64,000 bases of DNA from Arenicellales bacterium (lineage in GTDB: Bacteria; Pseudomonadota; Gammaproteobacteria; Arenicellales; JAJDZL01), in NCBI GenBank assembly GCA_965205205.1, contig CBDBFX010000002.1, positions 1,373,506 through 1,437,505 of the forward strand. Reading direction: 5' to 3'. The number at the start of each line of letters is the position of its first letter. The stretch's first letter is position 1. This document shows positions 4,193 through 46,928 of this stretch, piece by piece. Under the pieces are notes generated by a model. The model did not search any database and was not told where the DNA came from. It saw only the letters and a list, made by a program, of their open reading frames with translations. Position numbers and translations under genes: made by a program.

Positions 4193-4197
4193 AATTT

Positions 4198-19824: not shown

Positions 19825-20070
19825 GTCCCGGACCGCTCTGCTTTCGAATGCCGCACCCTTCCCGTCTCTGACCCCTGCTTTAATGACTCTCCAATCGCTT
19901 TCCAATGGCTCAAAATGGAGACAGCGAAATTGCCTCAGCATATAATGAGGTCCACAAACAATAAAATTTTGACTTGATCACGCAACGTTAAATGTCTCGA
20001 TTTGATTATTACAGAAGCAGGGGTGGAAGGATTGAATGATGTCTCAAACAGTCACCAGTCGGTCGTTGGC

Positions 20071-20640
20071 ATGAATACCGCGACATTTGATACATACGCG
20101 GCCGCGAGTGAGCTGCAGGCGCACGGCTTCACCGAAGACCAGGCTGTTGCGACTGTTTCAATGGTTCGCAGCGCCATGAACGAAAGCGTCGCTACGAAAG
20201 CTGATATTGCACAGCTTGAAAGTAGCATGAAGGCTGACTACGCGCAGCTTGAAAGTAGCATGAAGGCTGACTACGCGCAGCTTGAAAGTAGCATGAAGGC
20301 TGATATTGCACAGCTTGAAAGTAGCATGAAGGCTGATATTGCACAGCTTGAAAGTAGCATGAAGGCTGACTACGCGCAGCTCGAAAGTCACATTCAGACG
20401 TACAGTGCGCAGCTGGAAAGTCGGATGGAGACTCTGGAAAGTCGGATGAAGGCTGACAATGCACAGCTTAAAAGTGACATGAAGGCTGACAGTGCTCGTC
20501 TTGAATATCGGATGGAGACTCTGGAAAATCGGATGAAGGCTGACAATGCTGAGCTTGATAGCCGCTCGACCAAACGGTTGTACGTTGCTGCATTTGGTAT
20601 CGTCGCAATCACAGTTGGATTGCTGAAGCTCCTTGACTGA
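20071..20640 (+). CDS. DUF1640-like tail-anchored coiled-coil protein with 11-aa tandem repeats (copy 1)
   Basis: N-terminus MNTATFDTYAAASELQAHGFTEDQAVA matches the DUF1640 pattern. Six ADI/YAQLESSMK repeats. C-terminal TM segment LYVAAFGIVAITVGLLKLL. Start at ATG 20071 is preferred over the track's TTG at 20002. Confidence 0.65.
   Translation: MNTATFDTYAAASELQAHGFTEDQAVATVSMVRSAMNESVATKADIAQLESSMKADYAQLESSMKADYAQLESSMKADIAQLESSMKADIAQLESSMKADYAQLESHIQTYSAQLESRMETLESRMKADNAQLKSDMKADSARLEYRMETLENRMKADNAELDSRSTKRLYVAAFGIVAITVGLLKLLD
20200..20397 (+). repeat. 6 x 33-bp in-frame tandem repeat
   Basis: GCTGA(T/C)(A/T)(T/A)(T/C)GC(A/G)CAGCTTGAAAGTAGCATGAAG repeated head to tail. The paralogue at 59176..59406 has 7 units. 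Confidence 0.9.
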
Positions 20641-22870: not shown

Positions 22871-22985
22871 CCGCATCATAGCCACCGACCTAAGCGACGG
22901 CCACACGCACCGAGGGGGTGCGAGGGGCCGCTCTGTCTGCAGAACGCCCGCAGGGGTGCCTTCACACCGCCGCACCGGCGCGGAC

Positions 22986-25595
22986 CTGTCAACAAACCAC
23001 ACTTAACACGAAGAAAATAATTTGCTAAATTATGTGGCATGCAAATCGGCATGCGACAATATGACAAAGAGACGGTAGCTTGGTTCCGGCAGGCGGTGGT
23101 CGGGGGCGAGACCTCGCGGACGCAGTTGGCGTCGCAGCTGTGTGAACGGCTGGACTGGCGCAATGCGAAGGGCGAGCTGTGTGAGGCGTCGGCCCGAAAG
23201 GTGCTGCCGACGCTGGCGTTGCGGCTGGACGTCAAGCTGCCGGCGCCGGTGCGGCCGGCACCGTTGCGTTCGGCGGCCGGGTTGCCAGCGCCGCCGGTGG
23301 TCTGCGTGTCGGGGTCGCTGGCGGATTTGGGGGCGGTGACTTTGGTGCCGGTGGTCGATGAGGCAACCAGCGTGCCGTTTCGGGCGCTGATGGCCTGGCA
23401 TCATCCGGAGGGGGAGCCGCGGCATCCGGGCAAGCAGCTGTGCTGGCTGATTCACAGCGAACGTCATGGGGTGTTGGGTGGCATCGGATTTGTGGCGGCG
23501 GGGTGGCATCAGCAGGCGCGCGACCGGTTCATCGGCTGGGGTGCGCGGGCGCGGGTGGCGAACCTTCATCAGGTGGTGAACCATCATCGTTTTTTACTGT
23601 TGCCAGGGGTGCGGGTGGCGAATCTGGCGTCGCATGTGCTGGGTCAGGCGGTGGCGGCGTTGCCGGCGGCCTGGTGGCGGCGTCATCGGGAGACGGTGGT
23701 GCTGACGTATACGTATGTGGGCCCGGCGCATGCGGGGACCTGTTATCGGGCGGCGGGATGGTCGTGTGCCGGACAGACGTCGGGTCGCTCGCCGAGTGGT
23801 GGCGAGGGGGTGCGGCGGACGGTGTGGATGAGGCCGCTGGTGGCGGGGTGGCAGGCGACGCTGCAGGCGGCGCCGGTGCGGACGTTGCCGGTGGGTCCGG
23901 CGCGGCATGCGGCGGGCGACTGGGCGACCCGGGAGTTCGGTGGGAACGGTCTGACGGATGGTCGTCTGCGGCAGCGTCTGATCGAGATGGGTCGGTGCTG
24001 GCAGCAGCGGCCGGGGGCGCCAGTGGCGGAGATTTTTCCGGAACCGGCGGATCAGCGGGCGGCCTATCGGCTGCTGTCCAATGCCCGGGTCAGTTCGGCC
24101 GATGTGCTGGAGAGTCATCAGGCGATGACGGTGCAGCGGGTGGGCGAGGCGGACGGGACGGTGCTGGTGGTGCAGGACACCACGGTGCTGAACTACCAGA
24201 CGCTGCGCGACTCGACCGCCGGTCTGGTGGCGATTGGTGGCGGCGGTTCGGGCAGTGTGGGGGTGGTGGCCCATGTGCTGCTGGTGCTGACGCAGACGGG
24301 TCAGCCGTTGGGGGTGTTGGATGTGGAAGCGGATTTTCGGGCGCCGGGGCCAAAGACCGCGCGGCGGGCGGCGGCCGGCGCCAAGAAGGAAAGTGGTCGG
24401 TGGCTGCGCGGCTTCGAGCGCACGGCGGAGCTGGGGCGGGCCGATGGCGACAGGCGGGTGGTGACGGTGGGCGACCGCGAGGCGGACCTGTGGGCGCTGT
24501 ATGCGCGCCAGGCGGTGGAACCGACCGCCGGTCTGTTGGTGCGGGTGGCCGCGGGGAATCGGCGGCGGGTGCAGGTCGGCGATGAGACGCCACTGCTGGA
24601 AGACTACCTGGCCTCACTGGCGCCGTGCGCCACGACCGAGGTGGCGGTTCAGGCCCGTGGCGGGGCGCACGCCCGCGGCCATCGGACCGTGTCGGTGAAC
24701 CTACAGATCGCGCGGGTGCGCGTGTGTGCGCCGCGCGGCGAGCAGCCGTCCCACCTGACGCTGACGGCGGTGCGGGTGAGCGACGCGGCACCGGAAGACG
24801 GCCGCCCGCCGCTGCACTGGCTGCTGCTGTGTTCCGAAGGCGAGGCCACGGCCGAGTGGGCGCAACGCATCCAAGGTTGGTATCAGCGCCGCTGGAGCAT
24901 TGAGGAGTACTTTCGGGTGCTCAAGACTGGCACCCGCATCGAGGATCGGCAGCTTGATGCGGCCGAAGACCTGTGCAAGTGTCTGTGCTTCGATGCCATT
25001 GCCGCCTGGCAGGTGTTCGCCCTGCAGCGGGCCGCCCGCCATCAGCCGGAGTGCCCGGCCGAGCAGTTCGTCACCGGCGAGCAGATCGAGGTGCTCTATG
25101 CCTGTCTGCGCCGGGTGCGCATCCGACATCCGCGCGGCCCGCCCAAGGGCGCGCTTGACATCCGCACCTTTGTCATTGATGCGGCCCGCTTCGCCGGCTT
25201 CCGACCGTCGCGTCGGCAACCGCTGCCGGGGGCACAGAAACTGTGGAGCGGTCTGCGCTATCTGCAGTGGGCCCTGCTCGGCTATCAGGCCGCCGTTGAA
25301 GACGAGTCCCGGCCGCGTCGAAGACGACCGAGCCGGCGTTCTTGACGCCGGCCGCGCGGCCGGCACCAACCGGCCGCCAACCGCTCTCGGTCCGACCGGC
25401 CGAGACGGCCGCGCGGGCCGAAAACCCCCTCATCCGACCCGGCGCACCACCCGCGGCACCCGCCACCGACTCCCCACGGCCCGCACCGTCCCCTCACCGC
25501 CAAGCCACTACGAAAAACAGACCTGAAAGGGCCGATCCCTTGCCTTCCGATTGCAAAGGCGCGACATCACTGTGTTACGTGTGACTTCGTGACAG
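22986..25595 (+). mobile_element. IS-A copy 2 (2610 bp)
   Basis: CTGTCAACAAACCACACTT at 22986 and the reverse complement of CTGTCACGAAGTCACACG ending at 25595. 9-bp TSD GGCGCGGAC (22977-22985 and 25596-25604). Confidence 0.9.
23039..25345 (+). CDS. IS-A transposase (768 aa): DUF4338-like N-domain + Tn5-type DDE domain
   Basis: Intact. Differs from copy 3 at only two positions that I can see (CEA/CES and VRP/VRS). Confidence 0.85.
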   Translation: MQIGMRQYDKETVAWFRQAVVGGETSRTQLASQLCERLDWRNAKGELCEASARKVLPTLALRLDVKLPAPVRPAPLRSAAGLPAPPVVCVSGSLADLGAVTLVPVVDEATSVPFRALMAWHHPEGEPRHPGKQLCWLIHSERHGVLGGIGFVAAGWHQQARDRFIGWGARARVANLHQVVNHHRFLLLPGVRVANLASHVLGQAVAALPAAWWRRHRETVVLTYTYVGPAHAGTCYRAAGWSCAGQTSGRSPSGGEGVRRTVWMRPLVAGWQATLQAAPVRTLPVGPARHAAGDWATREFGGNGLTDGRLRQRLIEMGRCWQQRPGAPVAEIFPEPADQRAAYRLLSNARVSSADVLESHQAMTVQRVGEADGTVLVVQDTTVLNYQTLRDSTAGLVAIGGGGSGSVGVVAHVLLVLTQTGQPLGVLDVEADFRAPGPKTARRAAAGAKKESGRWLRGFERTAELGRADGDRRVVTVGDREADLWALYARQAVEPTAGLLVRVAAGNRRRVQVGDETPLLEDYLASLAPCATTEVAVQARGGAHARGHRTVSVNLQIARVRVCAPRGEQPSHLTLTAVRVSDAAPEDGRPPLHWLLLCSEGEATAEWAQRIQGWYQRRWSIEEYFRVLKTGTRIEDRQLDAAEDLCKCLCFDAIAAWQVFALQRAARHQPECPAEQFVTGEQIEVLYACLRRVRIRHPRGPPKGALDIRTFVIDAARFAGFRPSRRQPLPGAQKLWSGLRYLQWALLGYQAAVEDESRPRRRRPSRRS

Positions 25596-26487: not shown

Positions 26488-26587
26488 AAGCCATCTGACC
26501 CGGGTATCTTCCGTAATGAATTACTATACGCCGTATCTTTCACGCGATCTACGGCAATTCCCGTCAAACCTGCCGGGTCAGTAAATT

Positions 26588-26661
26588 CAGACTTCCTGAC
26601 ATGGTAACCGACATCAGCGGTGGTTCACTGATGGACAGGTCTGTCAAATCAGTGGTTTAAC
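26588..26661 (+). mobile_element. IS-E left-end fragment
   Basis: CAGACTTCCTGACATGGTAA.CGAC.TCAGCGGTGGTTCAC.GATGGACAGGTCTGTCAAATCAGTGGTTTAAC matches 4198-4271. Preceded by ~35 bp resembling an IS-D terminus. Confidence 0.7.
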
Positions 26662-26745
26662 CCGAAGTTCTGGAAGTAAATAGACGATAGGTGTTTGTTA
26701 TTTTTGTGAATTATTGACCATCCAATGATCAGTTTCTGACTACGT

Positions 26746-27099
26746 TTAGATTTTTACGTAAAGCAGGTCAAAGGCGGTTCGCTGCAGCTCGGTCGGTTCC
26801 GTCAACTGACTGAAACGCCGCTGAAACTGTTCGATGACAACAGTGTTGCGACACAAAGTGCCCAAGTGTCCGAGCAGGCCGCGGAAGTGATGGGGCGGAT
26901 GACCGTGTACCGTGCGCCGCGTCGTCGCTTTACGCCGGGCACTTGTAGAAGGAACGCTGGGCCGCACCGGCGAGCCGCGCCGCGCCTCCTGGCGGTTATC
27001 CTCCGCCAACAGCATTGGCGCCCAGGCCGGTCTTATATGCCACTCCACGTGATAGGCAGGCAGGCACAGGAAGACGTGGGAGCGAACCTGTTCAGTCAA
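26746..27099 (-). pseudogene. IS1634-type B transposase C-terminal fragment
   Basis: The 117-aa ORF contains VRSHVFLCLPAYHVEWHIR, the conserved IS1634 C-terminal block. Confidence 0.7.
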
Positions 27100-27245
27100 C
27101 CGATGATGGATCGGACGCGCCTGCAGATCAATCGTTTTCAGACAGCGGAACGCTTACTCCAGACGGGCCAGGCTCTTGTAGGCGCCGCACGGCGGCACTC
27201 GCCTCCAGTCTGGATTCGGACACCGAGGTGCGAACCACATAGATA

Positions 27246-29079
27246 GTGTCTGCAAGAAAACTCGAAAAAGTGAGATAATTATCTGATATCATGTGAATAA
27301 TATCGTATAATTGTGAACGAAGAATTGGCCTTTTGCCCTGAAAAAGGGGCGATTTCAGCCGATTCGCCGACTTTTCACCCAATCTTCGCCAGGCAGACAA
27401 GCAATGAGAGACATCATCAACCCGAATCTCGAACTGGGTGGCGTCGACATCATGGCCATTGAGATCGACCACCACTCGAGAGACGACATGCCGGCGGTGC
27501 TGCTGGGCCTGCAGGCGCTGTACAGTGACCCGCAGGTGAGAAAGCGGCTGTTCGCGCGGCTGGAGACGGAGGCGCTGCCGGGGGTGGATCTGAACAACGG
27601 CCGCCCGGGCATGGCGCTGTGGTCGGGACTGGTGATGGCGATGGTCAAGCAGGCGTTGAACTGCGATTTTGATCGTTTGCATGATCTGGTGGCCAACCAT
27701 AATAAACTGCAGCTGATGCTGGGTCATGGTACATGGATGGAGCCGCCGTACACGCTGCAGCAGGTGATCGACAACGTAAATCTGTTCCGCGCGGAACTGC
27801 TGGACAAGGTGTCGGCGCTGGTGGTGGAGGCGGCGCACCGGCGAGCGGGTCATCAGCCGGGCGAGGCGTTGAAAGGACGCTGCGATTCATTCGTGGCGCA
27901 GACGGACGTGCATTATCCGACCGACACCGGGCTGCTGAATGATGCGGCGCGCCGGCTGCTGGGTCTGATGCATCAGGCGCAGGCGTGTCATCAGGTGTCC
28001 GGGTGGCGGCAGTACCGACATCTGCAGCGAAAGCTGCGCGGTCTGTACAACGGCATCCGCCAGGCGAAGCAGGCGAAGGCGGACCCGGCGGCTTTGAAAG
28101 AATATCTGAGTTGGTGCGACGGGGTGGTGTCACGGGTCTGCGAGACGCGGGATCAGCTGATGCGGCAGGGGGTGTCGGGTGCGCTGCTGGACGAGGTGGT
28201 CACGTTCCTCGGCTACGCCGAGAAGCTGTCGGGTCAGGTGGTGCGGCGGCTGCAGCGCGGCGAGCAGATTCCGCACTCGGAGAAGATCTTTTCGGTGTTC
28301 GAGCCGCACACTCGGTGGATCGTCAAGGGCAAAGCGGGGGTGGCGGTGGAGTTGGGGGTGCCGGTGTGCATCGTCGAAGATCAGCATCAGCTGATCCTGT
28401 GTCAGAAGGTGATGTGGGAGGGCAGTGATGTGGACCATGCGGTGCCGGTGATCAAGGAGACGCTGCGGCGTCATCCGGATCTGAACCGATGCAGTTTCGA
28501 CCGCGGCTTTCACAGTCCGGCGGTGCAGCGGCAGTTGCAGGAGCTGCTGACTTACTGCGTGCTGCCGGTCAAGGGACGGCGTTCGCAGGCGGTGCGGGAG
28601 CGGGAGGAGCAGGCGTGGTTCCGCGAGTCGCGTCGTCAGCATCCGGCGGTGGAGTCGGCGATCAACAGTCTGCGGCATCGGGGTCTGGTGCGGGTGCGCA
28701 GTCATGGTGCGGCGGGCTTTGCGCGCACGGTGGCGCTGTCGGTGCTGGCTTACAACGTGCATCGGTATGGGGTGATGGTGCGCGACGAGTTGCGGGCGCG
28801 GGAGCGGCGGAAGCTGAAGCGGGCCGCCTGACGGCGGCGGTTGGCCAAAAGGGGTGTTGAACCGGTCCCGCCAGGGGACTGGATGGAGTCCTATGGGCCG
28901 AATTCGGCATTCGCCGCCCGACTGACGAAAAAAGCGTGCCAATCGGCGCAAAACGACCGAATGTTCAGAAATCTTCTCGCCCCGAACCCTCAGCCATCCA
29001 TTTTCTTCTCGATTCGAGGCTTCAGAAAATCAACATCGCCGGACATTTCATGCGAAAATGGGGGTTTTCTGGCAGACAC
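27246..29079 (+). mobile_element. IS-C copy 3 (1834 bp)
   Basis: Same termini. 6-bp TSD TAGATA (27240-27245 and 29080-29085). Inserted between LDGI and YVVRTS of the IS1634-B relic. Confidence 0.9.
27404..28831 (+). CDS. DDE transposase of IS-C (475 aa)
   Basis: Full-length paralogue. Confidence 0.75.
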   Translation: MRDIINPNLELGGVDIMAIEIDHHSRDDMPAVLLGLQALYSDPQVRKRLFARLETEALPGVDLNNGRPGMALWSGLVMAMVKQALNCDFDRLHDLVANHNKLQLMLGHGTWMEPPYTLQQVIDNVNLFRAELLDKVSALVVEAAHRRAGHQPGEALKGRCDSFVAQTDVHYPTDTGLLNDAARRLLGLMHQAQACHQVSGWRQYRHLQRKLRGLYNGIRQAKQAKADPAALKEYLSWCDGVVSRVCETRDQLMRQGVSGALLDEVVTFLGYAEKLSGQVVRRLQRGEQIPHSEKIFSVFEPHTRWIVKGKAGVAVELGVPVCIVEDQHQLILCQKVMWEGSDVDHAVPVIKETLRRHPDLNRCSFDRGFHSPAVQRQLQELLTYCVLPVKGRRSQAVREREEQAWFRESRRQHPAVESAINSLRHRGLVRVRSHGAAGFARTVALSVLAYNVHRYGVMVRDELRARERRKLKRAA

Positions 29080-29216
29080 TAGATACCGTCCAGCCGTGCT
29101 TCTCGGGGGATAGAATCGGTGTTGCGGGCGTAGTCAAAGGTGGTGTCGGTAATCCCGGTGTCGAAATGCTTGGCCACCTTGAATCGGTCCTTGACCCGAC
29201 CCAGGCGCAGGACGAT

Positions 29217-29420
29217 GGTCTGACAGATTCAGACCGGAACTGACAAGGCCCGACGCATCAGCTCCTTTCCGTCCTCCAATCGCCGCATCTGACCGACCGT
29301 TTTCTCAATCCCAGCGATGAGGTTCCGCCGACCCACGAAATGGAGTGCCTCTTCCCTGTCGGAGCACTCTGAAAACTCCACCAGACTCTTTTGCTTTTCC
29401 TCATCCTGTATGGCTTCCAT
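29217..29420 (-). pseudogene. ATPase 5' stub (first ~65 codons, frameshifted)
   Basis: MEAIQDEEKQKSLVEFSECSDREEALHFVGRRNLIAGIEKTVGQMRRL is homologous to the N-terminus of 13927..15234. Homology stops at the palindrome GGTCTGACAGATTCAGACC (29217-29235), where it is fused to the IS1634-B relic. Confidence 0.8.
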
Positions 29421-29525
29421 GATGCATCGGGTCAGTTGCATCGACTGCATTGACCGGCACAAAGCGACCGTCGAAACCTGACTGCGGTTCTGGTTTTCTC
29501 AGGCCTGCTGGCGGCCCCGGCCGCG

Positions 29526-30893
29526 GTGTTCGCGGAAGCGTCCTGGTACGGCTCGCTGCGCGGCGGCGTCCTGCTCGACAAGGGCAAAGATGCCAGGTTC
29601 TACGACGGCTACTCGCGCTGGGGCATCAAAGGCTCGAACGAGATATCGGAAGGGCTGTCCGCAGTCTACCGCTTCGAGCACAAGTTCAGCACCGAGGACG
29701 CCGGCCAGGCCGGCGGCCGGCTGGCCTACGTGGGCCTGTCCGGTGGTTTTGGCTCGCTGACGCTGGGACAGATCTGGAGCGCCAGCTACAACCACGCCGG
29801 CGTCATCCGCGACATCGGCAATTATTACAGCAGTGGCGACACCAGTGGCCGGATCGGCAACACCCTGTCCTACGCCTATTCGAACGACGCCTTCAGCGTG
29901 CAGTTCGACGCCATCATGGACGGTAAGAAGGACTCCGGCAACGCCATCGATCAGTGGGAACTCGGGGCGACGGTGAACATCGGCGATATCGGCAAAGTCG
30001 CCTTCGCCCATGTGAAGAAGGAAGACGTCAAAACGGGCAATAAAATGGTGAGGGTGACCAAGTGGTCCGGCGGCGGCCAGTGGCTCTACAGCCCGAAACT
30101 ATGGTCGAAAAACGCGGAAAGCACCTGGTCCATCAGTAAAAAAGGAACGGACAACACTCTAACTGCTGGTACTGGCGAGTTTCAGGAAGAATTTGAAAAA
30201 GGAAAGGAGATGAGAGTCGTTGTTCAACCAATAACCGTTTATGTCAAGCTGCCAAACACCAATTATGACGCGGATAAAAAACAATTGAAAGATGCGGTGG
30301 CGGGTACCCTTCATGGCCATCCCAGTTTTCAACGAATCACAGGAAGTGGTGGTGATTCGAATGTCAAACTTAATCCCAAGGTTTCTTTTCGGTATGGTGC
30401 TGCGTGTGATCCCACCACCCCACCAAGAGACGAGACTAAATGTGTAAAGACTACCGCCTATCAGGCTGAATTGAAACATAATGCAATAGTCGACAACGGC
30501 GTATTCTTTTTCGCTCCCGGTCATGTTGAGGATGAGATGGACTATGGCGAGAAGTCAAGCCACGTGTCGGCATCGTTTGACCTCGGTGCGGTGACCCTGG
30601 GTCTGGGCCATTCGACGACGAAGTTCATGGATCCGATGAAGACGAAGAAGGCGAAGACGAACTACATCGGCGTCAACGGTGCCATTGGCGACACCGGGCT
30701 GGACTGGCGGGCCTGGTATCGGACCAAGGAGGAGGTGAAGGACAACAACATGACGGTGAAGTCGAAGCCCTGGGGCATCGGTTTGGGCAAGAAACTCGGC
30801 GGTGGCGCTTTGGCCTATGTCGAGCATTGGAACGATGGCGCGAAAGGCGCAAAGAAATCCGGCACGGTGGTCGGCCTGCGCGTCGATTTCTAG
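29526..30893 (+). CDS. porin P2 (general bacterial porin type, type-I central insert); start unresolved
   Basis: EASWYGSLRGGV...RWGIKGSNEISEGL...YVGL.GGFG.LTLGQ N-block and C-terminal ...GGGALAYVEHWNDG...TVVGLRVDF (terminal F). Track coordinates use GTG 29526. The signal-peptide codons (LTAVLVFSGLLAAPAAVFA) lie in frame upstream, behind a TGA at 29451-29453. Confidence 0.75.
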   Translation: MFAEASWYGSLRGGVLLDKGKDARFYDGYSRWGIKGSNEISEGLSAVYRFEHKFSTEDAGQAGGRLAYVGLSGGFGSLTLGQIWSASYNHAGVIRDIGNYYSSGDTSGRIGNTLSYAYSNDAFSVQFDAIMDGKKDSGNAIDQWELGATVNIGDIGKVAFAHVKKEDVKTGNKMVRVTKWSGGGQWLYSPKLWSKNAESTWSISKKGTDNTLTAGTGEFQEEFEKGKEMRVVVQPITVYVKLPNTNYDADKKQLKDAVAGTLHGHPSFQRITGSGGDSNVKLNPKVSFRYGAACDPTTPPRDETKCVKTTAYQAELKHNAIVDNGVFFFAPGHVEDEMDYGEKSSHVSASFDLGAVTLGLGHSTTKFMDPMKTKKAKTNYIGVNGAIGDTGLDWRAWYRTKEEVKDNNMTVKSKPWGIGLGKKLGGGALAYVEHWNDGAKGAKKSGTVVGLRVDF

Positions 30894-31142: not shown

Positions 31143-31171
31143 AAAAAAACGGGGTGCAATAGCACCCCGTT
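31143..31171 (-). terminator. rho-independent terminator after P3
   Basis: On the minus strand: ACGGGGTGC-TATT-GCACCCCGT followed by TTTTTTT. Confidence 0.8.
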
Positions 31172-31198
31172 CCATTCTCATCAATGTGAACTCGGTCG

Positions 31199-31976
31199 CT
31201 AGAAACTCACGCCCAGTCCGACCACCGTGCCACTGGATTTCTTTGCTCCTTTCACACCGTCATTCCAATGCTCGACATAAGCCCAGGCGCCACCGCCCAG
31301 ATCCTTGCCCAACCCGATGCCCCAGGGCTTCGTCTTCGTGCCGTCGGCATGCTCCTTGGTCCGATACCAGGCCCGCCAGTCCAGCCCGGTGTCGTCAATG
31401 CCACCGTTAACGCCGATGTAATTCGTCTTCGTCTTCATGGCTCCCGCCTTGTTCGACTTCATCGTCGAATGACCCAGTCCCAAGGTGACCGCACCGATTT
31501 CAAACGATGCCGATATGTGATTCGACTTGCTGCCCGGCTCGCTGATAACTCTTTTGGTGACTGATTGCGTGCTGGCCGGTGTCAAGACTTGACTCGGCAA
31601 ATAGTAGAACGCCTGTATCTCGTCACTAACCTTTTTTGCGCCGGCCGATGTTCCCCCTGGAGTTTCGGTCGTGCCGAAATGTGCATAGGCGTCTATTTTC
31701 ACACACGCATCGGAAATACCATCATCAGTGTTTTTTTTGTCTATACATTCATATTTACCACTAGCCTTTTCGGTCTCAATAACGAACCAATAACTGTCGG
31801 GGTCGCCAACGGGATGATTGCCTTTACGAAGGGCCGTTATTTGAAGGTTGTATAGAGTGATTTGCTGAGTGTCCTTGCTGAGATCTGGAGCGTCAAAAGC
31901 CCCGCCTTTCTTCACATAGACCTTGATTTTCTTGACCTCTCTGAATTCAACAGCACCGGTGTTAGCAACAACTAGA
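31199..31976 (-). pseudogene. porin P3, 3' part (type-II central insert + C-block)
   Basis: ...ITALRKGNHPVGDPDSYWF...SKSNHISASFEIGAVTLGLGHST...AYVEHWNDG...VVGLGVSF. Separated from its 5' part by IS-C copy 4. Confidence 0.85.
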
Positions 31977-33476
31977 TAATTAGTGTCTGCAAGAAAACTC
32001 GAAAAAGTGAGATAATTATCTGATATCATGTGAATAATATCGTATAATTGTGAACGAAGAATTGGCCTTTTGCCCTGAAAAAGGGGCGATTTCAGCCGAT
32101 TCGCCGACTTTTCACCCAATCTTCGCCAGGCAGACAGGCAATGAGAAACATCATCAACCCGAATCACGAACTGGGCGGCATTGACATCACGGCCATTGAG
32201 ATCGACCACCACTCGAGAGACGACATGCCGGCGGTGCTGCTGGGCCTGCAGACGCTGTATCGCGACCCGCAGGTGAGAGAGCGGCTGTTCGCGCGGCTGG
32301 AGACGGAGGCGCTGCCGGGGGTGGACCTGAACAACGGTCGCCCGGGCATGGCGCTGTGGCCGGGACTGGTGATGGCGGTGGTCAAGCAGGCGTTGAACTG
32401 CGATTTCGATCGCCTGCATGATCAGGTGCGAAACCATGTGGACCTGCAGCGGATGATGGGTCATGGTTCATTGATGAAGCCGCCGTACACGCTGCAGCAG
32501 GTGGTGGACAATGTGAATCTGTTCAGTGCGGAACTGCTGGACAAGGTGTCGGCGCTGGTGGTGGAGGCGGCGCACCGGCGTGCGGGTCATCAGCCGGGCG
32601 AGGCGTTGAAAGGACGCTGCGATTCATTCGTGGCGCAGACGGACGTGCATTATCCGACCGACACCTCACAAGGGCCCACACTTGATTCTCAGAACATAAT
32701 GTGATAAAACAGGGCCTACCATGAAAGTAGGCCTGCATCAGTTTCACGCCCAGACCATCGACTGGTTTCAGAAGGCGGTGTCGACGCCGGGTGTGTCGCG
32801 CAACGCCCTGGCCCGCGGGCTGTGCGAGCGCGACGAGTGGACCGGTCCGACGGGTGAGTTGTGTGTGGCGGCGGCCCGCAAGGCGCTGCCGGTGCTGGCT
32901 GGGCGGCTGGGCGTGGCATTGCCGGCGCCGCACCCGGCATTCGGTTCGGGCGGCCGTGAGGCGCCGCCTGAGGCGGCTTATCCGGACCGCGCGCTGCGTG
33001 GCCCGCTGTCAGCGCTGGGTGAGGTGACGGTCGAGCCGGTGTCGGGCGATGAGGAACGGCGGCTGTGGGAGTCGATGATGCGCACGCATCATCCGCAGGG
33101 CTGGGCTCAGGCGCCGGGTGGCCAGCTGCGCTACTGGGTGTGTTCTTCGCGCTACGGTCGTCTGGGCGGGCTGAACTTCTGTGCGGCGAGCTGGCACCAG
33201 CAGGTGCGCGATGCGTTCATCGGCTGGTCGGGTGAGGCGCGGGTGTCGAATCTGAGTCGGGTGCTGAACAACCAGCGGCTGCTGATTCTGCCGGGGGTGC
33301 GGGTTCACGGTCTGGCCTCTCGGGTGCTGGAGCTGGCGTGTGCGCAGGTGGTTGAGGACTGGGAGGCGAAATACAATGTACGACCGGTGCTGGCGTACAC
33401 GTATGTGGCGCCCGAGCATCCGGGGACCAGCTACCGGGCGGCGGGTTGGCAGTGCGGTGCGGGCGGCACCTCGGGT

Positions 33477-35826
33477 CTCACAACATCCCACAGTTGAATC
33501 TATTCATTCTGGATCATGCCTCGCCTTCTGAGCGAGCGATAGGTAAAGACCGCCTCCCGCAGCAGCACATATCCCTGCCACAGTTTCATGACGCCCGGCA
33601 GCGGCTGACTGCGGCGCGGATGAAAACCCGCCAGCCGCGCCACATCGACGACGAAACTGCGGATGTCTGGCGCCTCGCCCGGTGGCGGCTGCGGCCGGCG
33701 GATGCCATAATCGTCCAGTCGGGTGTTCAGCACCAGCAGGTCATCTTCACTCACCACCTCGTCGGCCGGCGTCTGCGGGCGGTCGCGCGCCATCCGATCG
33801 AGGCTGAACACCTCACAGGCGGTGATGGCATCGAACGTCAGGCACTTGCGCAGGTCATCGGCATGGTCCAGCTGCCGCGCCTCTATGCCGGCGCCAGTCT
33901 TCAGGGTGCGGAAGTACTCCTCAATGGTCCAGCGCAGCTCATAGTGCCGCAGGGCGGTGCTGGCGCCGTCGGCATCGGCCTGCCCCTCGGTGGTCAGCAG
34001 CAGCCAGTGCAGCGGCTGCTCACCGGCCGGCGGGTCCGCTTCAATCGCACTGACCGCCAGCATCTCAATCGGCGCCGTATCCGCCCCCGAGGGCGGTCGC
34101 CGCGGTGGCGCCAGCCGCACCCGCGCCGCCCGCAACGCCAGCCGCACCTCGCGCCCCGCACGCTTCCGGCCACCCCCGCAGGCCACCACCTGCACGGTCT
34201 TCTCCGCCAGCGACGGCAACCTCTCCATGTGCGCCCACAGACACTCGCGCTTCCCGCCTGCCAACAGCACCTCGCGGCGACTCCCGCGCCGCACCCGAAC
34301 CAGCAGCCCGGCCGACTGCGCGCGCGCCTGATCCAGCAGCCCCCACAGGTCGCCCTCCCGATCGCATACCGTCACCACCCGCGTCCGCGCACAGGCCCGC
34401 TCCAGCTCACAGGCCCGTGCCAGACCTTCGCCCCAGCGCTCGCTTTCCAGCTCCAGCCGATCCGCATAGTCCGCATCCAGCGCATACACCCCCAGCGGTC
34501 GCCCCGCCTCGTTCACCGCCAGACCCACATGCGCCTTCAGACCCTGCACGCCCGACCCACCGCCACCAATGTTCACCAGCCCCGCCGTCGCCGGCCGACT
34601 CGCATAGTTCAGCGCCGTCGTGTCCTGCAGCGCCAGCACCACCGGCTCCAGCCGACAGCGATCCACCATCGCCGCCCAGTGCGGCTCCAAGATGTGTTCC
34701 ATTGTCACTCGCTCATTTGACAACAGCCGGTAAGCCGCACGCAAGTCCGCCCGCCGGGGAAAGATCTGCGGCAGCGATGCCCCCGGCCGCTCCAGCCACG
34801 CCCGACCCATGCGCAAGATCCGCGCGCACACCCGACCGTCCGGATGCCGGCTGCGGCCATATTCCACAACCGCCCAATCCGTCTTCTCATCCATGTGCAG
34901 CGCCGGCGCCGCCTGAATCTGCCGCACCGGCTCGGCGCACAGCACCGTCCGCCAGCCGCGCACCAGCGGTTTCAGCCACACTGCCCGCACCACCGTGCCA
35001 CCACTCGGCGAGCGACCCGAGGTGCCGCCCGCACCGCACTGCCAACCCGCCGCCCGGTAGCTGGTCCCCGGATGCTCGGGCGCCACATACGTGTACGCCA
35101 GCACCGGTCGTACATTGTATTTCGCCTCCCAGTCCTCAACCACCTGCGCACACGCCAGCTCCAGCACCCGAGAGGCCAGACCGTGAACCCGCACCCCCGG
35201 CAGAATCAGCAGCCGCTGGTTGTTCAGCACCCGACTCAGATTCGACACCCGCGCCTCACCCGACCAGCCGATGAACGCATCGCGCACCTGCTGGTGCCAG
35301 CTCGCCGCACAGAAGTTCAGCCCGCCCAGACGACCGTAGCGCGAAGAACACACCCAGTAGCGCAGCTGGCCACCCGGCGCCTGAGCCCAGCCCTGCGGAT
35401 GATGCGTGCGCATCATCGACTCCCACAGCCGCCGTTCCTCATCGCCCGACACCGGCTCGACCGTCACCTCACCCAGCGCTGACAGCGGGCCACGCAGCGC
35501 GCGGTCCGGATAAGCCGCCTCAGGCGGCGCCTCACGGCCGCCCGAACCGAATGCCGGGTGCGGCGCCGGCAATGCCACGCCCAGCCGCCCAGCCAGCACC
35601 GGCAGCGCCTTGCGGGCCGCCGCCACACACAACTCACCCGTCGGACCGGTCCACTCGTCGCGCTCGCACAGCCCGCGGGCCAGGGCGTTGCGCGACACAC
35701 CCGGCGTCGACACCGCCTTCTGAAACCAGTCGATGGTCTGGGCGTGAAACTGATGCAGGCCTACTTTCATGGTAGGCCCTGTTTTATCACATTATGTTCT
35801 GAGAATCAAGTGTGGGCCCTTGTGAG
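33477..35826 (-). mobile_element. IS-B inner copy (2350 bp, intact)
   Basis: Same ends in inverted orientation. 9-bp TSD ACCTCGGGT (33468-33476 and 35827-35835) inside the outer copy's transposase gene. Confidence 0.9.
33500..35770 (-). CDS. IS-B transposase (756 aa): DUF4338-like N-domain + Tn5-type DDE domain
   Basis: YRLLSNERV, LQDTTALNY, VCDREGDLW, YELRWTIEEYFRTLKTG. N-half: RDAFIGW..NLSRVLNNQRLLILPGVRVHGLAS..GTSYRAAGW. Confidence 0.85.
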   Translation of the reverse strand: MKVGLHQFHAQTIDWFQKAVSTPGVSRNALARGLCERDEWTGPTGELCVAAARKALPVLAGRLGVALPAPHPAFGSGGREAPPEAAYPDRALRGPLSALGEVTVEPVSGDEERRLWESMMRTHHPQGWAQAPGGQLRYWVCSSRYGRLGGLNFCAASWHQQVRDAFIGWSGEARVSNLSRVLNNQRLLILPGVRVHGLASRVLELACAQVVEDWEAKYNVRPVLAYTYVAPEHPGTSYRAAGWQCGAGGTSGRSPSGGTVVRAVWLKPLVRGWRTVLCAEPVRQIQAAPALHMDEKTDWAVVEYGRSRHPDGRVCARILRMGRAWLERPGASLPQIFPRRADLRAAYRLLSNERVTMEHILEPHWAAMVDRCRLEPVVLALQDTTALNYASRPATAGLVNIGGGGSGVQGLKAHVGLAVNEAGRPLGVYALDADYADRLELESERWGEGLARACELERACARTRVVTVCDREGDLWGLLDQARAQSAGLLVRVRRGSRREVLLAGGKRECLWAHMERLPSLAEKTVQVVACGGGRKRAGREVRLALRAARVRLAPPRRPPSGADTAPIEMLAVSAIEADPPAGEQPLHWLLLTTEGQADADGASTALRHYELRWTIEEYFRTLKTGAGIEARQLDHADDLRKCLTFDAITACEVFSLDRMARDRPQTPADEVVSEDDLLVLNTRLDDYGIRRPQPPPGEAPDIRSFVVDVARLAGFHPRRSQPLPGVMKLWQGYVLLREAVFTYRSLRRRGMIQNE

Positions 35827-38534
35827 ACCTCGGGTCGCTCGCCGAGTGGTGGCACGGTGGTGCGGGCAGTGTGGCTGAAACCGCTGGTGCGCGGCTGGCG
35901 GACGGTGCTGTGCGCCGAGCCGGTGCGGCAGATTCAGGCGGCGCCGGCGCTGCACATGGATGAGAAGACGGATTGGGCGGCTGTGGAATATGGCCGCAGC
36001 CGGCATCCGGACGGTCGGGTGTGCGCGCGGATCTTGCGCATGGGTCGGGCGTGGCTGGAGCGGCCGGGGGCATCGCTGCCGCAGATCTTTCCCCGGCGGG
36101 CGGACTTGCGTGCGGCTTACCGGCTGTTGTCAAATGAGCGAGTGACAATGGAACACATCTTGGAGCCGCACTGGGCGGCGATGGTGGATCGCTGTCGGCT
36201 GGAGCCGGTGGTGCTGGCGCTGCAGGACACGACGGCGCTGAACTATGCGAGTCGGCCGGCGACGGCGGGGCTGGTGAACATTGGTGGCGGTGGGTCGGGC
36301 GTGCAGGGTCTGAAGGCGCATGTGGGTCTGGCGGTGAACGAGGCGGGGCGACCGCTGGGGGTGTATGCGCTGGATGCGGACTATGCGGATCGGCTGGAGC
36401 TGGAAAGCGAGCGCTGGGGCGAAGGTCTGGCACGGGCCTGTGAGCTGGAGCGGGCCTGTGCGCGGACGCGGGTGGTGACGGTATGCGATCGGGAGGGCGA
36501 CCTGTGGGGGCTGCTGGATCAGGCGCGCGCGCAGTCGGCCGGGCTGCTGGTTCGGGTGCGGCGCGGGAGTCGCCGCGAGGTGCTGTTGGCAGGCGGGAAG
36601 CGCGAGTGTCTGTGGGCGCACATGGAGAGGTTGCCGTCGCTGGCGGAGAAGACCGTGCAGGTGGTGGCCTGCGGGGGTGGCCGGAAGCGTGCGGGGCGCG
36701 AGGTGCGGCTGGCGTTGCGGGCGGCGCGGGTGCGGCTGGCGCCACCGCGGCGACCGCCCTCGGGGGCGGATACGGCGCCGATTGAGATGCTGGCGGTCAG
36801 TGCGATTGAAGCGGACCCGCCGGCCGGTGAGCAGCCGCTGCACTGGCTGCTGCTGACCACCGAGGGGCAGGCCGATGCCGACGGCGCCAGCACCGCCCTG
36901 CGGCACTATGAGCTGCGCTGGACCATTGAGGAGTACTTCCGCACCCTGAAGACTGGCGCCGGCATAGAGGCGCGGCAGCTGGACCATGCCGATGACCTGC
37001 GCAAGTGCCTGACGTTCGATGCCATCACCGCCTGTGAGGTGTTCAGCCTCGATCGGATGGCGCGCGACCGCCCGCAGACGCCGGCCGACGAGGTGGTGAG
37101 TGAAGATGACCTGCTGGTGCTGAACACCCGACTGGACGATTATGGCATCCGCCGGCCGCAGCCGCCACCGGGCGAGGCGCCAGACATCCGCAGTTTCGTC
37201 GTCGATGTGGCGCGGCTGGCGGGTTTTCATCCGCGCCGCAGTCAGCCGCTGCCGGGCGTCATGAAACTGTGGCAGGGATATGTGCTGCTGCGGGAGGCGG
37301 TCTTTACCTATCGCTCGCTCAGAAGGCGAGGCATGATCCAGAATGAATAGATTCAACTGTGGGATGTTGTGAGGACCGACACCGGGCTGCTGAATGATGC
37401 GGCGCGCCGGCTGCTGGGTCTGATGCATCAGGCGCAGGCGTGTCATCAGGTGTCCGGGTGGCGGCAGTACCGACATCTGCAGCGAAAGCTGCGCGGTCTG
37501 TACAACGGCATCCGCCAGGCGAAGCAGGCGAAGGCGGACCCGGCGGCTTTGAAAGAATATCTGAGTTGGTGCGACGGGGTGGTGTCACGGGTCTGCGAGA
37601 CGCGGGATCAGCTGATGCGGCAGGGGGTGTCGGGTGCGCTGCTGGACGAGGTGGTCACGTTCCTCGGCTACGCCGAGAAGCTGTCGGCTCAGGTGGTGCG
37701 GCGATTGCTGCGCGGCGAGCAGATTGTGCACTCGGAGAAGATCTTTTCGGTGTTCGAGCCGCACACTCGGTGGATCGTCAAGGGCAAAGCGGGGGTGGCG
37801 GTGGAGTTGGGGGTGCCGGTGTGCATCGTCGAAGATCAGCATCAGCTGATCCTGTGTCAGAAGGTGATGTGGGAGGGCGGTGATGTGGACCATGCGGTGC
37901 CGGTGATCAAGGAGACGCTGCGGCGTCATCCGCAGTTGGAGAAGTGCAGTTTCGACCGCGGCTTTCACAGTCCGGCGGTGCAGCGGCAGTTGCAGGAGCT
38001 GCTGACTTACTGCGTGCTGCCGGTCAAGGGACGGCGCTCGCAGGCGGTGCGGGAGCGGGAGGGGCAGGCGTGGTTCCGCGAGGCGCGTCGTCAGCATCCG
38101 GCGGTGGAGTCGGCGATCAACAGTCTGCGGCATCGGGGTCTGGTGCGGGTGCGCAGTCATGGTGCGGCGGGCTTTGCGCGCACGGTGGCGCTGTCGGTGC
38201 TGGCTTACAACGTGCATCGGTATGGGGTGATGGTGCGCGACGAGTTGCGGGAGCGGGAGCGGCGGAAGCGGGCCGCCTGACGGCGGCGGTTGGTCAAAAG
38301 GGGTGTTGAACCGGTCCCGCCAGGGGACTGGATGGAGACCTATGGGCCGAATTCGGCATTCGCCGCCCGACTGACGGAAAAAGCGTGCCAATCGGCGCAA
38401 AACGGCCGAATGTTCAGAAATCTTCTCTCCCCGAACCCTCAGCCATCCATTTTCTTCTCGTTTCGAGGCTTCATAAAATCAACATCGCCGGACATTTCAT
38501 GCGAAAATGGGGGTTTTCTGGCAGACACTAATTA

Positions 38535-39199
38535 TTAAGTGAACCTATTCCGACTTTGGGTGGTGTCATCGTGACCGTCGTCTGATTTTCCATCTGATCT
38601 TCCATACTCACATGGGCGAAAGCGACTTTGCCGATGTCGCCGATGTTGACCGTTGCCCCGAGTTCCCACTGATCGACGGCCTTGCCGGTGTCTTTCCCGC
38701 CTTCCATGATGGCATCGAACTGCACGCTGAAAACGTCGTTCGAATAGGCGTAGGACAGCGCGTTGCCAATCCGGAAGCTGGTGTCCGAATCGCTGTAATA
38801 ATTGCCGATGTCGCGGATGACGCCGGCGTGGTTGTAACTGGCGCTCCAGATCTGTCCCAGCGTCAGCTTGCCGAAACCGCCGTCCAGGCCCACGTAGGCC
38901 AGCCGGCCTTTGGTCGCTTTCCTGGCCAGACCGGCATCCGTGGTGCTGATGGCGTGCTCGAAGCGGTAGACTGCGGACAGGCCTTCCGAGATCTCGTTCG
39001 AGCCCTTGATGCCCCAGCGCGAGTAGCCGTCGTAGAACTCGGCGTCCTCGCCCTTTTTCAGCTCGACGCCGCCGCGCAGCGAGCCGTACCAGGACGCTTC
39101 CGCGAACACCGCGGCCGGCGCCGCCAGCAGGCCTGAGAAAACCAGAACCGCAGTCAGGTTTTGACGGTCGCTTTGTACAGGTGAATTCAACTGATGCAA
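38535..39199 (-). pseudogene. porin P3, 5' part (the only copy with an in-frame start and open leader)
   Basis: TTG start at 39199, then HQLNSPVQSDRQNLTAVLVFSGLLAAPAAVFA/EASWYG... through KVAFAHVSMED and the start of the type-II insert. Ends at the IS-C TSD. Confidence 0.85.
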
Positions 39200-39214: not shown

Positions 39215-39435
39215 ATGGAAGCCATGTGGAATGAGGAAAAGGAAAGGGGTCTGACGGAGTTTTCAGAACGGTCCGACAGGGAAGAGGCACTCTATTTCGT
39301 GGGTCGGCCAGACCTCATCGCTGGGATTGAGAAAACGGTCGGTCAGATGTGGCGGCTGGTGGCCGGAAAGGAGGTGTCGGACCTTGTCAGTTCCGGTCTG
39401 AATCTGTCAGACCGGCCCCCTGGCTGGTGCGGGAT
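39215..39435 (+). pseudogene. ATPase 5' stub
   Basis: MEAMWNEEKERGLTEFSERSDREEALYFVGRPDLIAGIEKTVGQMWRLVAGKEVSDLVSSGLNLSD. Homology extends a few codons past the palindrome (39395-39413), then is lost. Confidence 0.8.
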
Positions 39436-39537
39436 GCAAATTAAATGTTCAATTCAACATTTATTCGCCGAACACATGAATCGGACAAAATACACTACAC
39501 AAAATCGGGCCGTCATCTTCTGAAACTCGATAAATTT

Positions 39538-40161
39538 CAGACTTCCTGACATGGTCAGCGACTTCAGCGGTGATTCACGGATGGACAGGTCTGTCAAATC
39601 AGTGGTTTAACGTTCTCCAGCTGCGGCTTTCTCCCGATCGGGCCGTCCCATATGGCCAGCTGCAAAAATCTCTCGCCACAGATTCGATCATGATACCATC
39701 AGTGCCCGTCGGCCGGGGGTTGACATCACCGGATGACACCCTGGCTGTCGCCCGCTCGCCGGCGGCATCTGGAAGATCCCATCCCTCCGGTGGTCGGCCG
39801 TTGTCGGTCGTCGGTGCGGTTGAAAAAGAGTGCAGAAAAAGTGAAAAAAGTCCGCCGCATCGGCGCACTGCAGTATAATTAAGAACAGCATTATACAATC
39901 ATCACAACAGGATTCCGACAGGCTTTACAAAGACGCCATCCAGAAGCCCCTGGAACCGATTCCCGCGCAGGCGACGCACATCTGCGGACCGTTCTCCTTC
40001 GTGGTCGACTGGGGCCTGACCTACTACTACAACTACCTGTCGCCGTTCGACTGCCATCCGGGCGATGACCACCCGGCCATGCAGCTGCGCATCGGCCGCC
40101 TGTGAAGGATCTGATGAGTGCCTTCGAGGTGCCGCGGGCGACGCTTAGGTCAGGAAGTCTG
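39538..40161 (+). mobile_element. IS-E copy 2, internally deleted (624 bp)
   Basis: Both CAGACTTCCTGAC ends are present. The ORF is truncated and its ATG is mutated (GACATGCTT becomes GACAGGCTT). No TSD. Confidence 0.7.
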
Positions 40162-40271: not shown

Positions 40272-41780
40272 ATGGAAAAATCATCGCGCATTACCATACC
40301 GAGAGTGGCCATTGGTGGATTGTGGCACGAAACCAACACTTTCGCCCCCGGCATCACGCGTCTCGAAGATTTCGTCGCCTATCAATATGCGCGGAATAAT
40401 GAACTGCTCGAAAAGTACACCGGTACCAACACCGAGCTGGGTGGTATGATCCGAGGATCAACCAATATCGAGCTGATACCCACTCTCTTTGCGGCGGCGG
40501 TACCATCCGCAACGATTGAATATCAGTCGTTTATCGAGCTGGTTGATGATCTGATCGAACGAATGCAAAAAGCGATGCCTTTGGACGGTGTTGTTCTTTC
40601 ATTACATGGTGCCGCGGTGGCCGACAACATTGACGATGCCGATGCCTGCATTCTCGAACGCGTCCGACAGGCGGTCGGGGACGCGGTGCCGATCATCGCA
40701 ACATTCGATTATCACGCCAATCTGAGCGACAGCATGATACGAACCGCATCGGTACTGATCGGCTACAATACATTTCCGCATACTGACATGGCCGAGCGGG
40801 GCGAAGAGGCGGTTGTCGTGATGAAGCGGCTCCTCACAGAAAATATCAAATTGCATTGCATCCATCGCAAACTTCCACTTCTCACTTCACCTCTGGAACA
40901 GCAGACTGATGAATCTCCCATGCAGGAAATATTGCAAAAGCTTGAAGATCTTGAATCAGGTCCAGCGATTATCAGTGGTTCAGTTGCTATGGGATATCCG
41001 TACAGTGATGTCGCTCATCTCGGCGCGTCGGTCGTCGTTTACGGCAGTTGTTCAGAACGGGCCGAAAACGCGGCCAATATCATCGCATCAGCATTATGGA
41101 ATGCGAAAGAGAAATTTCAGACGCAACTATTGCCAGTTGACACGTGTGTTGACATTGCTGTCAACAGCTCCCAATTCCCAGTCGTAATCGTCGAACCGGC
41201 CGACAATGTAGGCGGTGGCGGTGCTGGTGACGGAACGGCTGTCCTGCAGGCGTTACTGAACGCCAGAGCAGATCGATCAGTCATTGTCATATTCGATCCG
41301 GCCGCTGTCGAAGAGGCCCAAAAGATCGGTGTCGGCAACAGGTGTACGCTTCGCATCGGTGGAAAAACCGATGACAAGCACGGCCAGCCGGTGGCAGCTG
41401 AGGTAGTGGTGAATCGAATAACACCGGGCGAATATGTTCACAAGGGTTCTTACATGACGGGTTATGTCACTTCAATGGGGCAGACTGCATTGGTTGAATC
41501 CCAAGGCGTACAGATCGTACTGACATCCAGGCGCAGTATGCCTTTTGACGCCGAACAGCTGCGTTCACTGAGAATCGAACCTGCAGAACAGAAGATTATC
41601 GTTGTAAAATCTGCGATCGGCTGGAAGGCGGCTTACGGTGATGTCGCAAAGCTGGTGCTGGTTGCCGACACACCCGGCGTCTGTGCGGCTGACCTCACCC
41701 GATTGAACTACCATAAATGTGCAGACTCCCTGTACCCAATCAGGCAATCAACAACATTTTCCGTTGGATCTGATCAATGA
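40272..41780 (+). CDS. M81-family (MlrC-like) metallopeptidase
   Basis: RVAIGGLWHETNTFAP N-terminus and a ~500-aa length are typical of the MlrC/DUF1485 family. Confidence 0.7.
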   Translation: MEKSSRITIPRVAIGGLWHETNTFAPGITRLEDFVAYQYARNNELLEKYTGTNTELGGMIRGSTNIELIPTLFAAAVPSATIEYQSFIELVDDLIERMQKAMPLDGVVLSLHGAAVADNIDDADACILERVRQAVGDAVPIIATFDYHANLSDSMIRTASVLIGYNTFPHTDMAERGEEAVVVMKRLLTENIKLHCIHRKLPLLTSPLEQQTDESPMQEILQKLEDLESGPAIISGSVAMGYPYSDVAHLGASVVVYGSCSERAENAANIIASALWNAKEKFQTQLLPVDTCVDIAVNSSQFPVVIVEPADNVGGGGAGDGTAVLQALLNARADRSVIVIFDPAAVEEAQKIGVGNRCTLRIGGKTDDKHGQPVAAEVVVNRITPGEYVHKGSYMTGYVTSMGQTALVESQGVQIVLTSRRSMPFDAEQLRSLRIEPAEQKIIVVKSAIGWKAAYGDVAKLVLVADTPGVCAADLTRLNYHKCADSLYPIRQSTTFSVGSDQ

Positions 41781-46905: not shown

Positions 46906-46928
46906 TACGTTTCCCGATATTCGAAATC

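Follow-up and report, generated by a model that had tools for sequence, protein, structure and literature searches.

Deletions that arise illegitimately at hairpins or palindromes, and truncations linked to insertion sequences (ISs) and followed by segmental duplication, are part of general bacterial genetics. In the sap system of Campylobacter fetus, promoters or 5' ends are swapped by DNA inversion. The vsa genes of Mycoplasma pulmonis and the vpma genes of M. agalactiae also swap promoters or 5' ends by inversion (PMC4534519), and silent-cassette variation is known from pilE/pilS of Neisseria, the msp2/p44 'functional pseudogenes' of Anaplasma and vlhA of Mycoplasma synoviae (PMC4534519, PMC11946796, PMC2789410). 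The locus considered here resembles each of these in part. It lies in a stretch of 64,000 nucleotides (nt), below called the window, from an Arenicellales bacterium (assembly GCA_965205205.1, contig CBDBFX010000002.1, positions 1,373,506 to 1,437,505 of the forward strand), and consists of 5' stubs of an ATPase gene that stand back to back with porin genes, three of them fused at one junction to the relic of an IS1634-family transposase. On the reading that we favour as probable, the stubs are dead debris of a single deletion, and the neighbouring porins are start-less, intact and recombining, possibly serving as silent donors.

Comparison of the window with itself reveals six copies or stubs of a gene for a 435-residue Orc1/Cdc6-like AAA+ ATPase. 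Two are full-length genes, here called A-type, and four are stubs (s29, s39, s50 and s54). Each of the six is divergent from a porin or porin fragment, as a preliminary description of this DNA had stated. A 19-bp palindrome, GGTCTGAATCTGTCAGACC, composed of 7-bp arms (GGTCTGA and TCAGACC) and a 5-nt loop (ATCTG), occurs at six sites where chance would predict none. Copies at 14107, 29217, 39395, 50503 and 62559 are exact, and the copy at 54218 has one mismatch. All six sites fall within the ATPase codons G-L-N-L-S-D, just ahead of the Walker A motif (GAPGAGKT). This motif is carried by the full ATPase copies, and the stubs stop before it. Translation and alignment place s29 at 29217-29420 (-), where the minus strand from 29420 to 29217 encodes the first 67 ATPase codons (MEAIQDEEKQKSLVEFSECSDREEALHFVGRRNLIAGIEKTVGQMRRL..) and a 5-nt insertion just ahead of the palindrome (29217-29235) causes a frameshift. 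The same methods show that s50 (50503-50701, -) retains 67 codons in frame and reads into the relic out of frame. By alignment, s54 (54034-54236, +) has a 1-nt deletion, a 5-nt insertion and in-frame stops, in addition to the mismatch in its palindrome.

In s29, s50 and s54 the nucleotide alignment ends ATPase homology at the same base, 0-1 nt past the palindrome (29216/29217 in s29, as located by repeat search, alignment and hairpin scan). The sequence that follows is common to all three, A(T/G)C(G/A)(T/C)CCTGCGCCT(G/A)GGTCGGGTCAAG, and translates as LRLGRVK..KHFDT..LDGIYVVRT. It belongs to the C-terminal third of an IS1634-family transposase (..LRLGRVKDRFKVAKHFDTGITDTTFDYARNTDSIPREARLDG..). 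A composite of the relics matches the NCBIfam model NF033559 (IS1634 transposase) over positions 321-479 of 483 (E = 3e-25, 89 bits), and the junction is therefore internal to the transposase gene. The score lies under the 100-bit cut-off for the full-length protein, of which one third is present. The preliminary description held that the stubs at 29217, 50503 and 54241 end at the palindrome or within 5 nt of it, that they are joined to the same internal point of the transposase and that the fusion took place once and was then copied. All of this is borne out, with entry at model position ~321 in each case, junctions that are identical at the nucleotide level on both sides and indels that are nested. 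The 5-nt insertion is common to s29 and s54, and a 75-nt deletion in the relic is found only in s50. An ISNCY-family element sits in the relic of s29 only, and a fragment of a different IS cuts that of s54 at 54458. One illegitimate junction was later propagated to three copies, and the retention of ~67 codons in each is inheritance rather than three independent outcomes. The remaining stub, s39 (39215-39437, +, by alignment), leaves ATPase homology 24 nt deeper into the gene, beyond the palindrome, and enters unrelated AT-rich DNA, so its truncation is a separate event. The indels point to a branching order of ((s29,s54),s50), with s39 split off before the fusion. Copies of the active IS families of the window have 95-99.7% identity, but the stubs differ from each other by 11-17%, and both fusion and spread are thus old relative to current IS activity.

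The relics carry frameshifts, together with the 75-nt deletion in s50 and the ISNCY insertion in s29. The proximal part of the s29 relic (LRLGRVKDRFKVAKHFDT..ARLDG; 29084-29216, -) is recognised by its NF033559 match. It is interrupted at 29083/29084, and from 27243 it continues as far as the IS terminus, CGAAGTTCTGGAAGTAAATAGACG, at 26663 (distal part 26663-27243, -, by sequence comparison). The interrupting ISNCY-family element (27244-29079, +) is complete, with a 475-aa transposase at 27404-28831 (NF033593, 406 bits) and a TAGA duplication at 27240-27243 and 29080-29083. Alignment shows the relic of the 50-kb module at 49944-50502 (-), with the internal deletion and the same IS terminus at 49944, and that of the 54-kb module at 54237-54457 (+). 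No relic contains a complete transposase open reading frame (ORF) with both IS ends, and a full IS1634-family copy is absent from the window. Homology between the 29-kb and 50-kb modules stops exactly at the IS1634 terminus (26663 and 49944). The flanks beyond it are unrelated, being a 76-bp repeat at one module and the end of gcvP at the other. This pattern would fit spread by recombination in which IS1634 copies and porin sequence served as portable homology, or by rearrangement associated with the IS end. Transposon-like mobilisation by means of an IS1634 inverted repeat at the other end of the module was considered and rejected, as only the two relic termini match. An inversion linking s39 to the relic modules through the 76-bp repeat (26586-26661, 39527- and 4187-) was also discarded, the sequences upstream of the repeat being different.

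The repeat itself is present at 4187-4751, 39527-40091 and 26586-26661. Its left boundary is sharp ((A)AATT(T)CAGACTTCCTGACATGG..), and the IS1634 relic of the 29-kb module sits inside one such copy, after ..GGTTTAAC. The 176-aa ORF of the repeat has no family match. The left end and N-terminal third of an IS1634-family element (positions 9-173 of 483) are inserted in the porin fragment p13 at 12630-13532 (-), with the transposase portion at 13364-12630. The window thus holds both the N- and C-terminal thirds of this family.

The history that we propose would begin with an illegitimate deletion that fused the foot of the one strong hairpin in the ATPase gene to a point midway along the transposase gene of a nearby IS1634-family element. 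Within the 1308-nt gene, the palindrome alone forms a stem of at least 7 bp, with a folding energy of -9.1 kcal/mol alone and -16.9 kcal/mol with its flanks (RNA parameters). We estimate the chance that a random breakpoint falls within 2 nt of the hairpin feet at ~0.8%. We infer that the hairpin guided the deletion, either through replication slippage or through cleavage of the hairpin followed by rejoining. The likeness to known hairpin-associated deletions consists of an end point exactly at the hairpin foot, a second end point inside an IS and a product inherited by duplicated copies. The present case differs in being a single event, so that no hotspot can be demonstrated. Duplication or gene conversion in the heavily recombining porin family would then have carried the block of IS relic, stub and porin 5' end to three sites. 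The stubs would have come along because they border on the conserved stretch of 5' homology among the porins. The neighbouring porins have lost their -10-like box, ribosome-binding site and ATG, with coding bodies that stayed intact, diverse and recombining. This mutational explanation fits the end point of the stubs at least as well as selected retention does.

The full-length ATPases, at 13927-15234 (+; profile, structure model and Foldseek) and 62757-61441 (-; self-comparison), lie in duplicated segments of 96.6% nucleotide identity. Pfam gives only weak matches to AAA_22 and AAA_16, below or near the cut-offs, and searches of PADLOC, PDB sequences and NCBIfam likewise return weak matches at the level of the P-loop only. 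An AlphaFold model built on 39 homologues (predicted local distance difference test score, pLDDT, 85) shows an AAA+ base, a lid and a winged-helix-like C-terminus. The top Foldseek matches are 1fnn, 2fna and 2qby, each with probability 1.0 but with template-modelling scores (TM-scores) of only 0.34-0.46. The modelled fold is most similar to archaeal/eukaryotic Cdc6/Orc1 and STAND NTPases. It shares with them an FVGR helix, the P-loop, the lid and the C-terminal winged-helix-like domain, and it differs in its low TM-scores, its weak Pfam matches and a huge expansion of the family. Approximately 19 loci occur in each of two Arenicellales metagenome-assembled genomes (MAGs; OZ219781 and OZ220493, loci L001-L038, L048 and L050). 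Several of these are tandem arrays of two to four copies, and pairing with a porin is limited to one subclade. More distant relatives, also multi-copy, are found in alphaproteobacterial MAGs.

In OZ220493, divergent porin-ATPase pairs alternate over ~53 kb covered by six overlapping loci (L003, L004, L006, L008, L010 and L013). The spacers between the two start codons are highly conserved, 112-113 nt in 11 of 12 cases and 85 nt in the other. All six porins inspected there have AAGGTGA upstream of an ATG start (MPVLIFSGLL..; MPVLIFSGLLTAPATVFA|EASWYG). The divergent pair is therefore ancestral, which accounts for the presence of a porin opposite each of the six ATPase copies and stubs of the window. 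The conserved pairing of a porin with an Orc1/Cdc6-like ATPase is a previously undescribed association that might involve a regulatory link. In the genome studied here, the A-type loci have intact ATPases and dead porins, and the B-type loci, those with the stubs, have open porin frames and dead ATPases. Given this reciprocal decay, the partners are evidently not obligatorily coupled in this genome.

The spacer of the window copies is a degraded form of the ancestral control region. The porin start was placed by aligning the spacers with that of an intact relative and with the A-type loci of the window, p13 and p62. For p29, the porin facing s29, the ancestral start corresponds to 29481-29483, and ATG is replaced by ACT in all four B-type copies (p29, p39, p50 and p54). 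Also missing from each of the four is a block of ~31 nt with a conserved CAGTATA(A/C)AC (-10-like) box and a purine-rich ribosome-binding segment. The distance from the ATPase ATG to the ancestral start codon is 60 nt in p29, 51 in p50, 53 in p54 and 60 in p39. Upstream of the signal peptide, p29, p50 and p54 contain none of ATG, GTG and TTG in frame. The region upstream in p54 reads TTG CAT TGA, a TGA is also present upstream in p29, and the first canonical start in p29 is a GTG at 29526, within the signal peptide.

The preliminary description had noted that the ATPase start and an ATGCAT nearly abut in four pairs, and ATGGCTTCCATGATGCA[T/C] is indeed found four times. The further proposal that ATGCAT is the porin leader fails. 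In p29 its ATG, at 29422, opens a 19-codon ORF in a non-porin frame that ends with the TGA at 29479-29481, and the stretch after it varies among the copies, with a 9-nt deletion in p50, a 7-nt deletion in p54 and an early stop in p39. ATGCAT was accordingly rejected both as a porin start and as an upstream ORF. The claim that no intergenic promoter space exists is overstated, since the signal peptide begins 51-60 nt from the ATPase ATG, although the spacer is indeed short (in p29, by alignment, the degenerate segment at 29421-29480, +). The 112-nt spacer of one relative (L003-L013, ~3885-3985) contains a perfect dyad, AATGC-AAC-GCATT, and TGCAT motifs recur in the degraded spacers of the window. 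These may be the remnant of an operator.

Porin p29 (29478-30893, +; profile and alignment) is identical (100%) to the predicted protein P0121 and encodes a signal peptide within an open frame of 471 codons, with ACT at 29481 for ATG. The porins facing s50 and s54 are also start-less. They are p50 (50750-52120, +; alignment and paralog comparison), corresponding to P0140, and p54 (52559-53983, -; alignment), corresponding to P0131. Their frames, counted from the first signal-peptide codon, are open for 457 and 475 codons. Profile matches are to Porin_4 (E = 1.2e-19) and Porin_1 (E = 1.3e-9). The sequence of the signal peptide is ..LTAVLVFSGLLAAPAAVFA|EASWYG, and the C-terminal residue is aromatic (..VDF or ..VNF). 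In each of the three, ~190 residues at the N-terminus and ~110 at the C-terminus, the last of them Phe, are conserved, and the ~150-200 residues of the centre cannot be aligned between copies. In the conserved parts the ratio of non-synonymous to synonymous divergence (dN/dS) is 0.33-0.53 at dS 0.2-0.48, and in a neutral simulation the chance that 471 codons remain free of stops is 0.013-0.09 per lineage. The start-less porin ORFs are intact and under constraint. Porin p54 is a mosaic, with a 5' part and centre nearest p29 and a 3' part nearest p50.

The other porins of the window are fragments. Facing s39 is a 5' fragment, p39 (38528-39199, -), with a possible TTG start at 39199 and a 3' side cut by an ISNCY fragment at ~38531. 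Both A-type porins have an ATG and the same 29-aa internal deletion. The first, p13 (13533-13841, -), is cut by the IS1634-family element, and the second, p62 (62848-63465, +), is frame-disrupted and then followed by an IS3-like orfA. A seventh piece, the 3' part of a porin, is convergent with p29 at 31147-31977 (-), its 5' side replaced by the first 689 bp of an ISNCY element (31977-32665).

Fifteen full-length paralogs (14 and P0241) were retrieved from the source genome. In 10 of the 14, the gene callers begin the protein at 'MFAEASWYG' or 'MLDKG' and include no signal peptide. A Met followed by a signal peptide is predicted for P0123 (MKIIRNLTAV..) and for P0122 and P0241 (M(K/T)(I/F)TQKIATV..), and P0133 may also be start-bearing (TTG, as in p39). 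In this strongly mosaic family, paralogs with an overall identity of 62-85% have tracts of 65-139 residues in common that are 98-100% identical. For example, p50 matches the start-bearing P0241 at 361 of 363 positions over a stretch that begins at residue ~115, takes in all of the variable centre and reaches the C-terminus, but the two are only ~85% identical over the first 60 residues. Scans of metagenomes with an exact 35-mer of the porin 5' block and with the porin profile found no match.

By analogy with known silent-cassette systems, the start-less porins, a dozen or so complete genes that each have a different surface-exposed centre, might be silent donor cassettes for three or four start-bearing loci elsewhere in the genome, a suggestion that we advance tentatively. 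Donor segments would then be moved into those loci by gene conversion or inversion, and the ATPase stubs would be fossils of an ancestral array with a divergent ATPase partner for each porin. This part of the scheme is equally tentative. The likeness lies in the many porin paralogs that appear to lack a promoter, ribosome-binding site or start beside a few loci predicted to be competent for expression, in the conserved 5' and 3' parts that surround a hypervariable centre and in the identical segments common to silent and start-bearing copies. However, the porins here are complete bodies with signal peptides rather than truncated cassettes, there are perhaps three or four start-bearing loci rather than one, and the host is an uncultured marine Arenicellales bacterium rather than a pathogen under antibody pressure. 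Were the porins donor cassettes, cassette-type surface variation would extend to the general porins of a marine gammaproteobacterium that is probably under host or phage pressure. The finding on the stubs as such is ordinary genome archaeology and calls for no new biology. The larger picture is of a classical trimeric-type porin family with more than 14 paralogs, most of them start-less yet intact, with completely different exposed centres and with tracts of 98-100% identity to start-bearing copies.

An analogy can also be drawn with the vsa, vpma and sap inversion systems. A conserved 5' block is common to oppositely oriented porin paralogs, nothing but 5' expression signals is missing from the silent copies, and tyrosine recombinase genes lie near porins of the window. 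However, no conserved recombination box was identified and no inversion variants were seen, and the three recombinase genes of the window resemble an IS-truncated, selfish 'recombinase in trio' element.

The start-less porins could instead be ordinary pseudogenes and passive recipients, whose frames are kept open by conversion from a few expressed paralogs. The mosaic tracts do show frequent conversion, which may have run in either direction. The region is also saturated with IS elements and their fragments, and the A-type porins p13 and p62 are clearly dead. However, at least 10 start-less paralogs have different intact hypervariable centres, as against three or four start-bearing loci. Overwriting explains the start-less diversity poorly, since the distinct intact centres outnumber the loci that could supply them, and dN/dS between the start-less copies is 0.33-0.53. 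We regard the passive-recipient explanation as unlikely.

The stubs themselves are probably hitchhiking remnants with no function of their own, to judge from how they diverge, which resembles neutral decay. Identity between modules is 83-89% in the stub, 85% in the dead IS relic and 81-88%, with indels, in the spacer. The N-terminal part of the porin, at 84-89%, is in the same range, and the signal-peptide block reaches 95-98%. This block was examined as a possible anchor for gene conversion and set aside, the differences fitting, by our estimate, purifying selection and the measured dS. Among stubs dN/dS ranges from 0.34 to 1.43, and between stubs and full-length copies from 0.21 to 0.52. Frameshifts or stops are present in s29 and s54. 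In the intact relatives, the ribosome-binding site, the ATG and the -10-like box all lie in the 112-113-nt spacer and not in the ATPase gene. Elsewhere in the source genome, the paralog P0130 loses homology exactly at the ATPase start and has no stub, and the statement that each porin drags a stub along does not extend to the whole genome.

Several observations weigh against the reading of the stubs as dead debris beside start-less porins. The second truncation, s39, also spares ~75 codons, compared with 67 in the relic fusion, and we estimate that two random breakpoints would fall within 25 nt of each other in ~4% of cases. The remaining spacer of 51-60 nt is too short for a normal promoter and leader, and any transcription of the porins must therefore begin in or beyond the stub. 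Scans for sigma-70 promoters and terminators found no promoter-like site in any stub or in the A-type locus, but the sigma-70 scan was equally blank for the intact relatives, so that this result is weak and does not discriminate. Translation of p29, p50 and p54 may start from a rare CTG (AAC CTG ACT), and the start-bearing paralogs are known as predicted proteins only.

The short spacer and the two independent truncations that keep 67 and ~75 codons are also what would be expected if the first ~65 ATPase codons were kept as a promoter, operator or recombination site needed by the porin, possibly centred on the palindrome, as the preliminary description had proposed. In addition, the palindrome and ~12 nt upstream of it are near-invariant in all six copies, although the A- and B-types differ by 20-25% elsewhere in the stub. 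By our estimate this invariant 32-nt block is not significant (p = ~0.1 over multiple windows), the copies representing effectively two lineages. The stub diverges like the dead IS relic, with dN/dS near 1, indels and stops. No promoter-like site was found in it, the spacer was the ancestral place of the porin signals, which have been lost from these copies, and P0130 does without a stub altogether. The palindrome was also rejected as a conserved element, being absent from the ATPase DNA of the relatives even though the protein motif NLSDQ.TWLVQGAPGAGK (NLSDQ.TW) is conserved. Retention for the needs of the porin is on this evidence quite improbable.

Least probable by far, and already contradicted by the alignment, is that the palindrome is a target or crossover site and the three junctions are independent site-specific events of IS insertion or a recombinase; the junction does lie at the foot of the hairpin, and three tandem tyrosine-recombinase genes are present at 9567-12383, but the IS side is the same internal transposase nucleotide in all three and not an IS end, both arms of the palindrome are kept where a crossover in its spacer would swap one, and the 7-5-7 geometry is below the size of tyrosine-recombinase core sites, the known ones being larger.

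The three recombinase genes (9567-12383, -) overlap and lie 1 kb from the p13/ATPase locus. The first two encode 415 and 315 aa, and the third is truncated by an IS at ~9331, in a layout like that of a 'recombinase in trio' element. An IS of 2.6 kb is present in three copies with 99.4% identity, at 6718-9331, 22985-25595 and 55416-58030. Their ORF spans 768-828 aa (768 aa were scanned) and has a DruA-like domain (PF14236) at its N-terminus, together with Tnp_DNA_bind and DDE_Tnp_1. A second IS, at 33500-35770, contains a related version of 756 aa. The region 32665-37377 is a head-to-head inverted duplication (32665-35023 against 37377-35014) with 99.9-100% identity and an ORF across its centre, and could be either a palindromic IS dimer or an assembly artefact. 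A coiled-coil (CCDC90-like) ORF is present in two copies of 95% identity, at 20002-20640 and 58978-59649, with internal tandem repeats of 33-nt period. An intact housekeeping block at 40272-49850 encodes an MlrC-like M81 peptidase, an M24 peptidase, a class-III aminotransferase, an Amdase-like protein, gcvT, a likely gcvH and gcvP. This block separates the 39-kb and 50-kb porin modules, so that the clutter of porins and ISs is interleaved with core chromosome.

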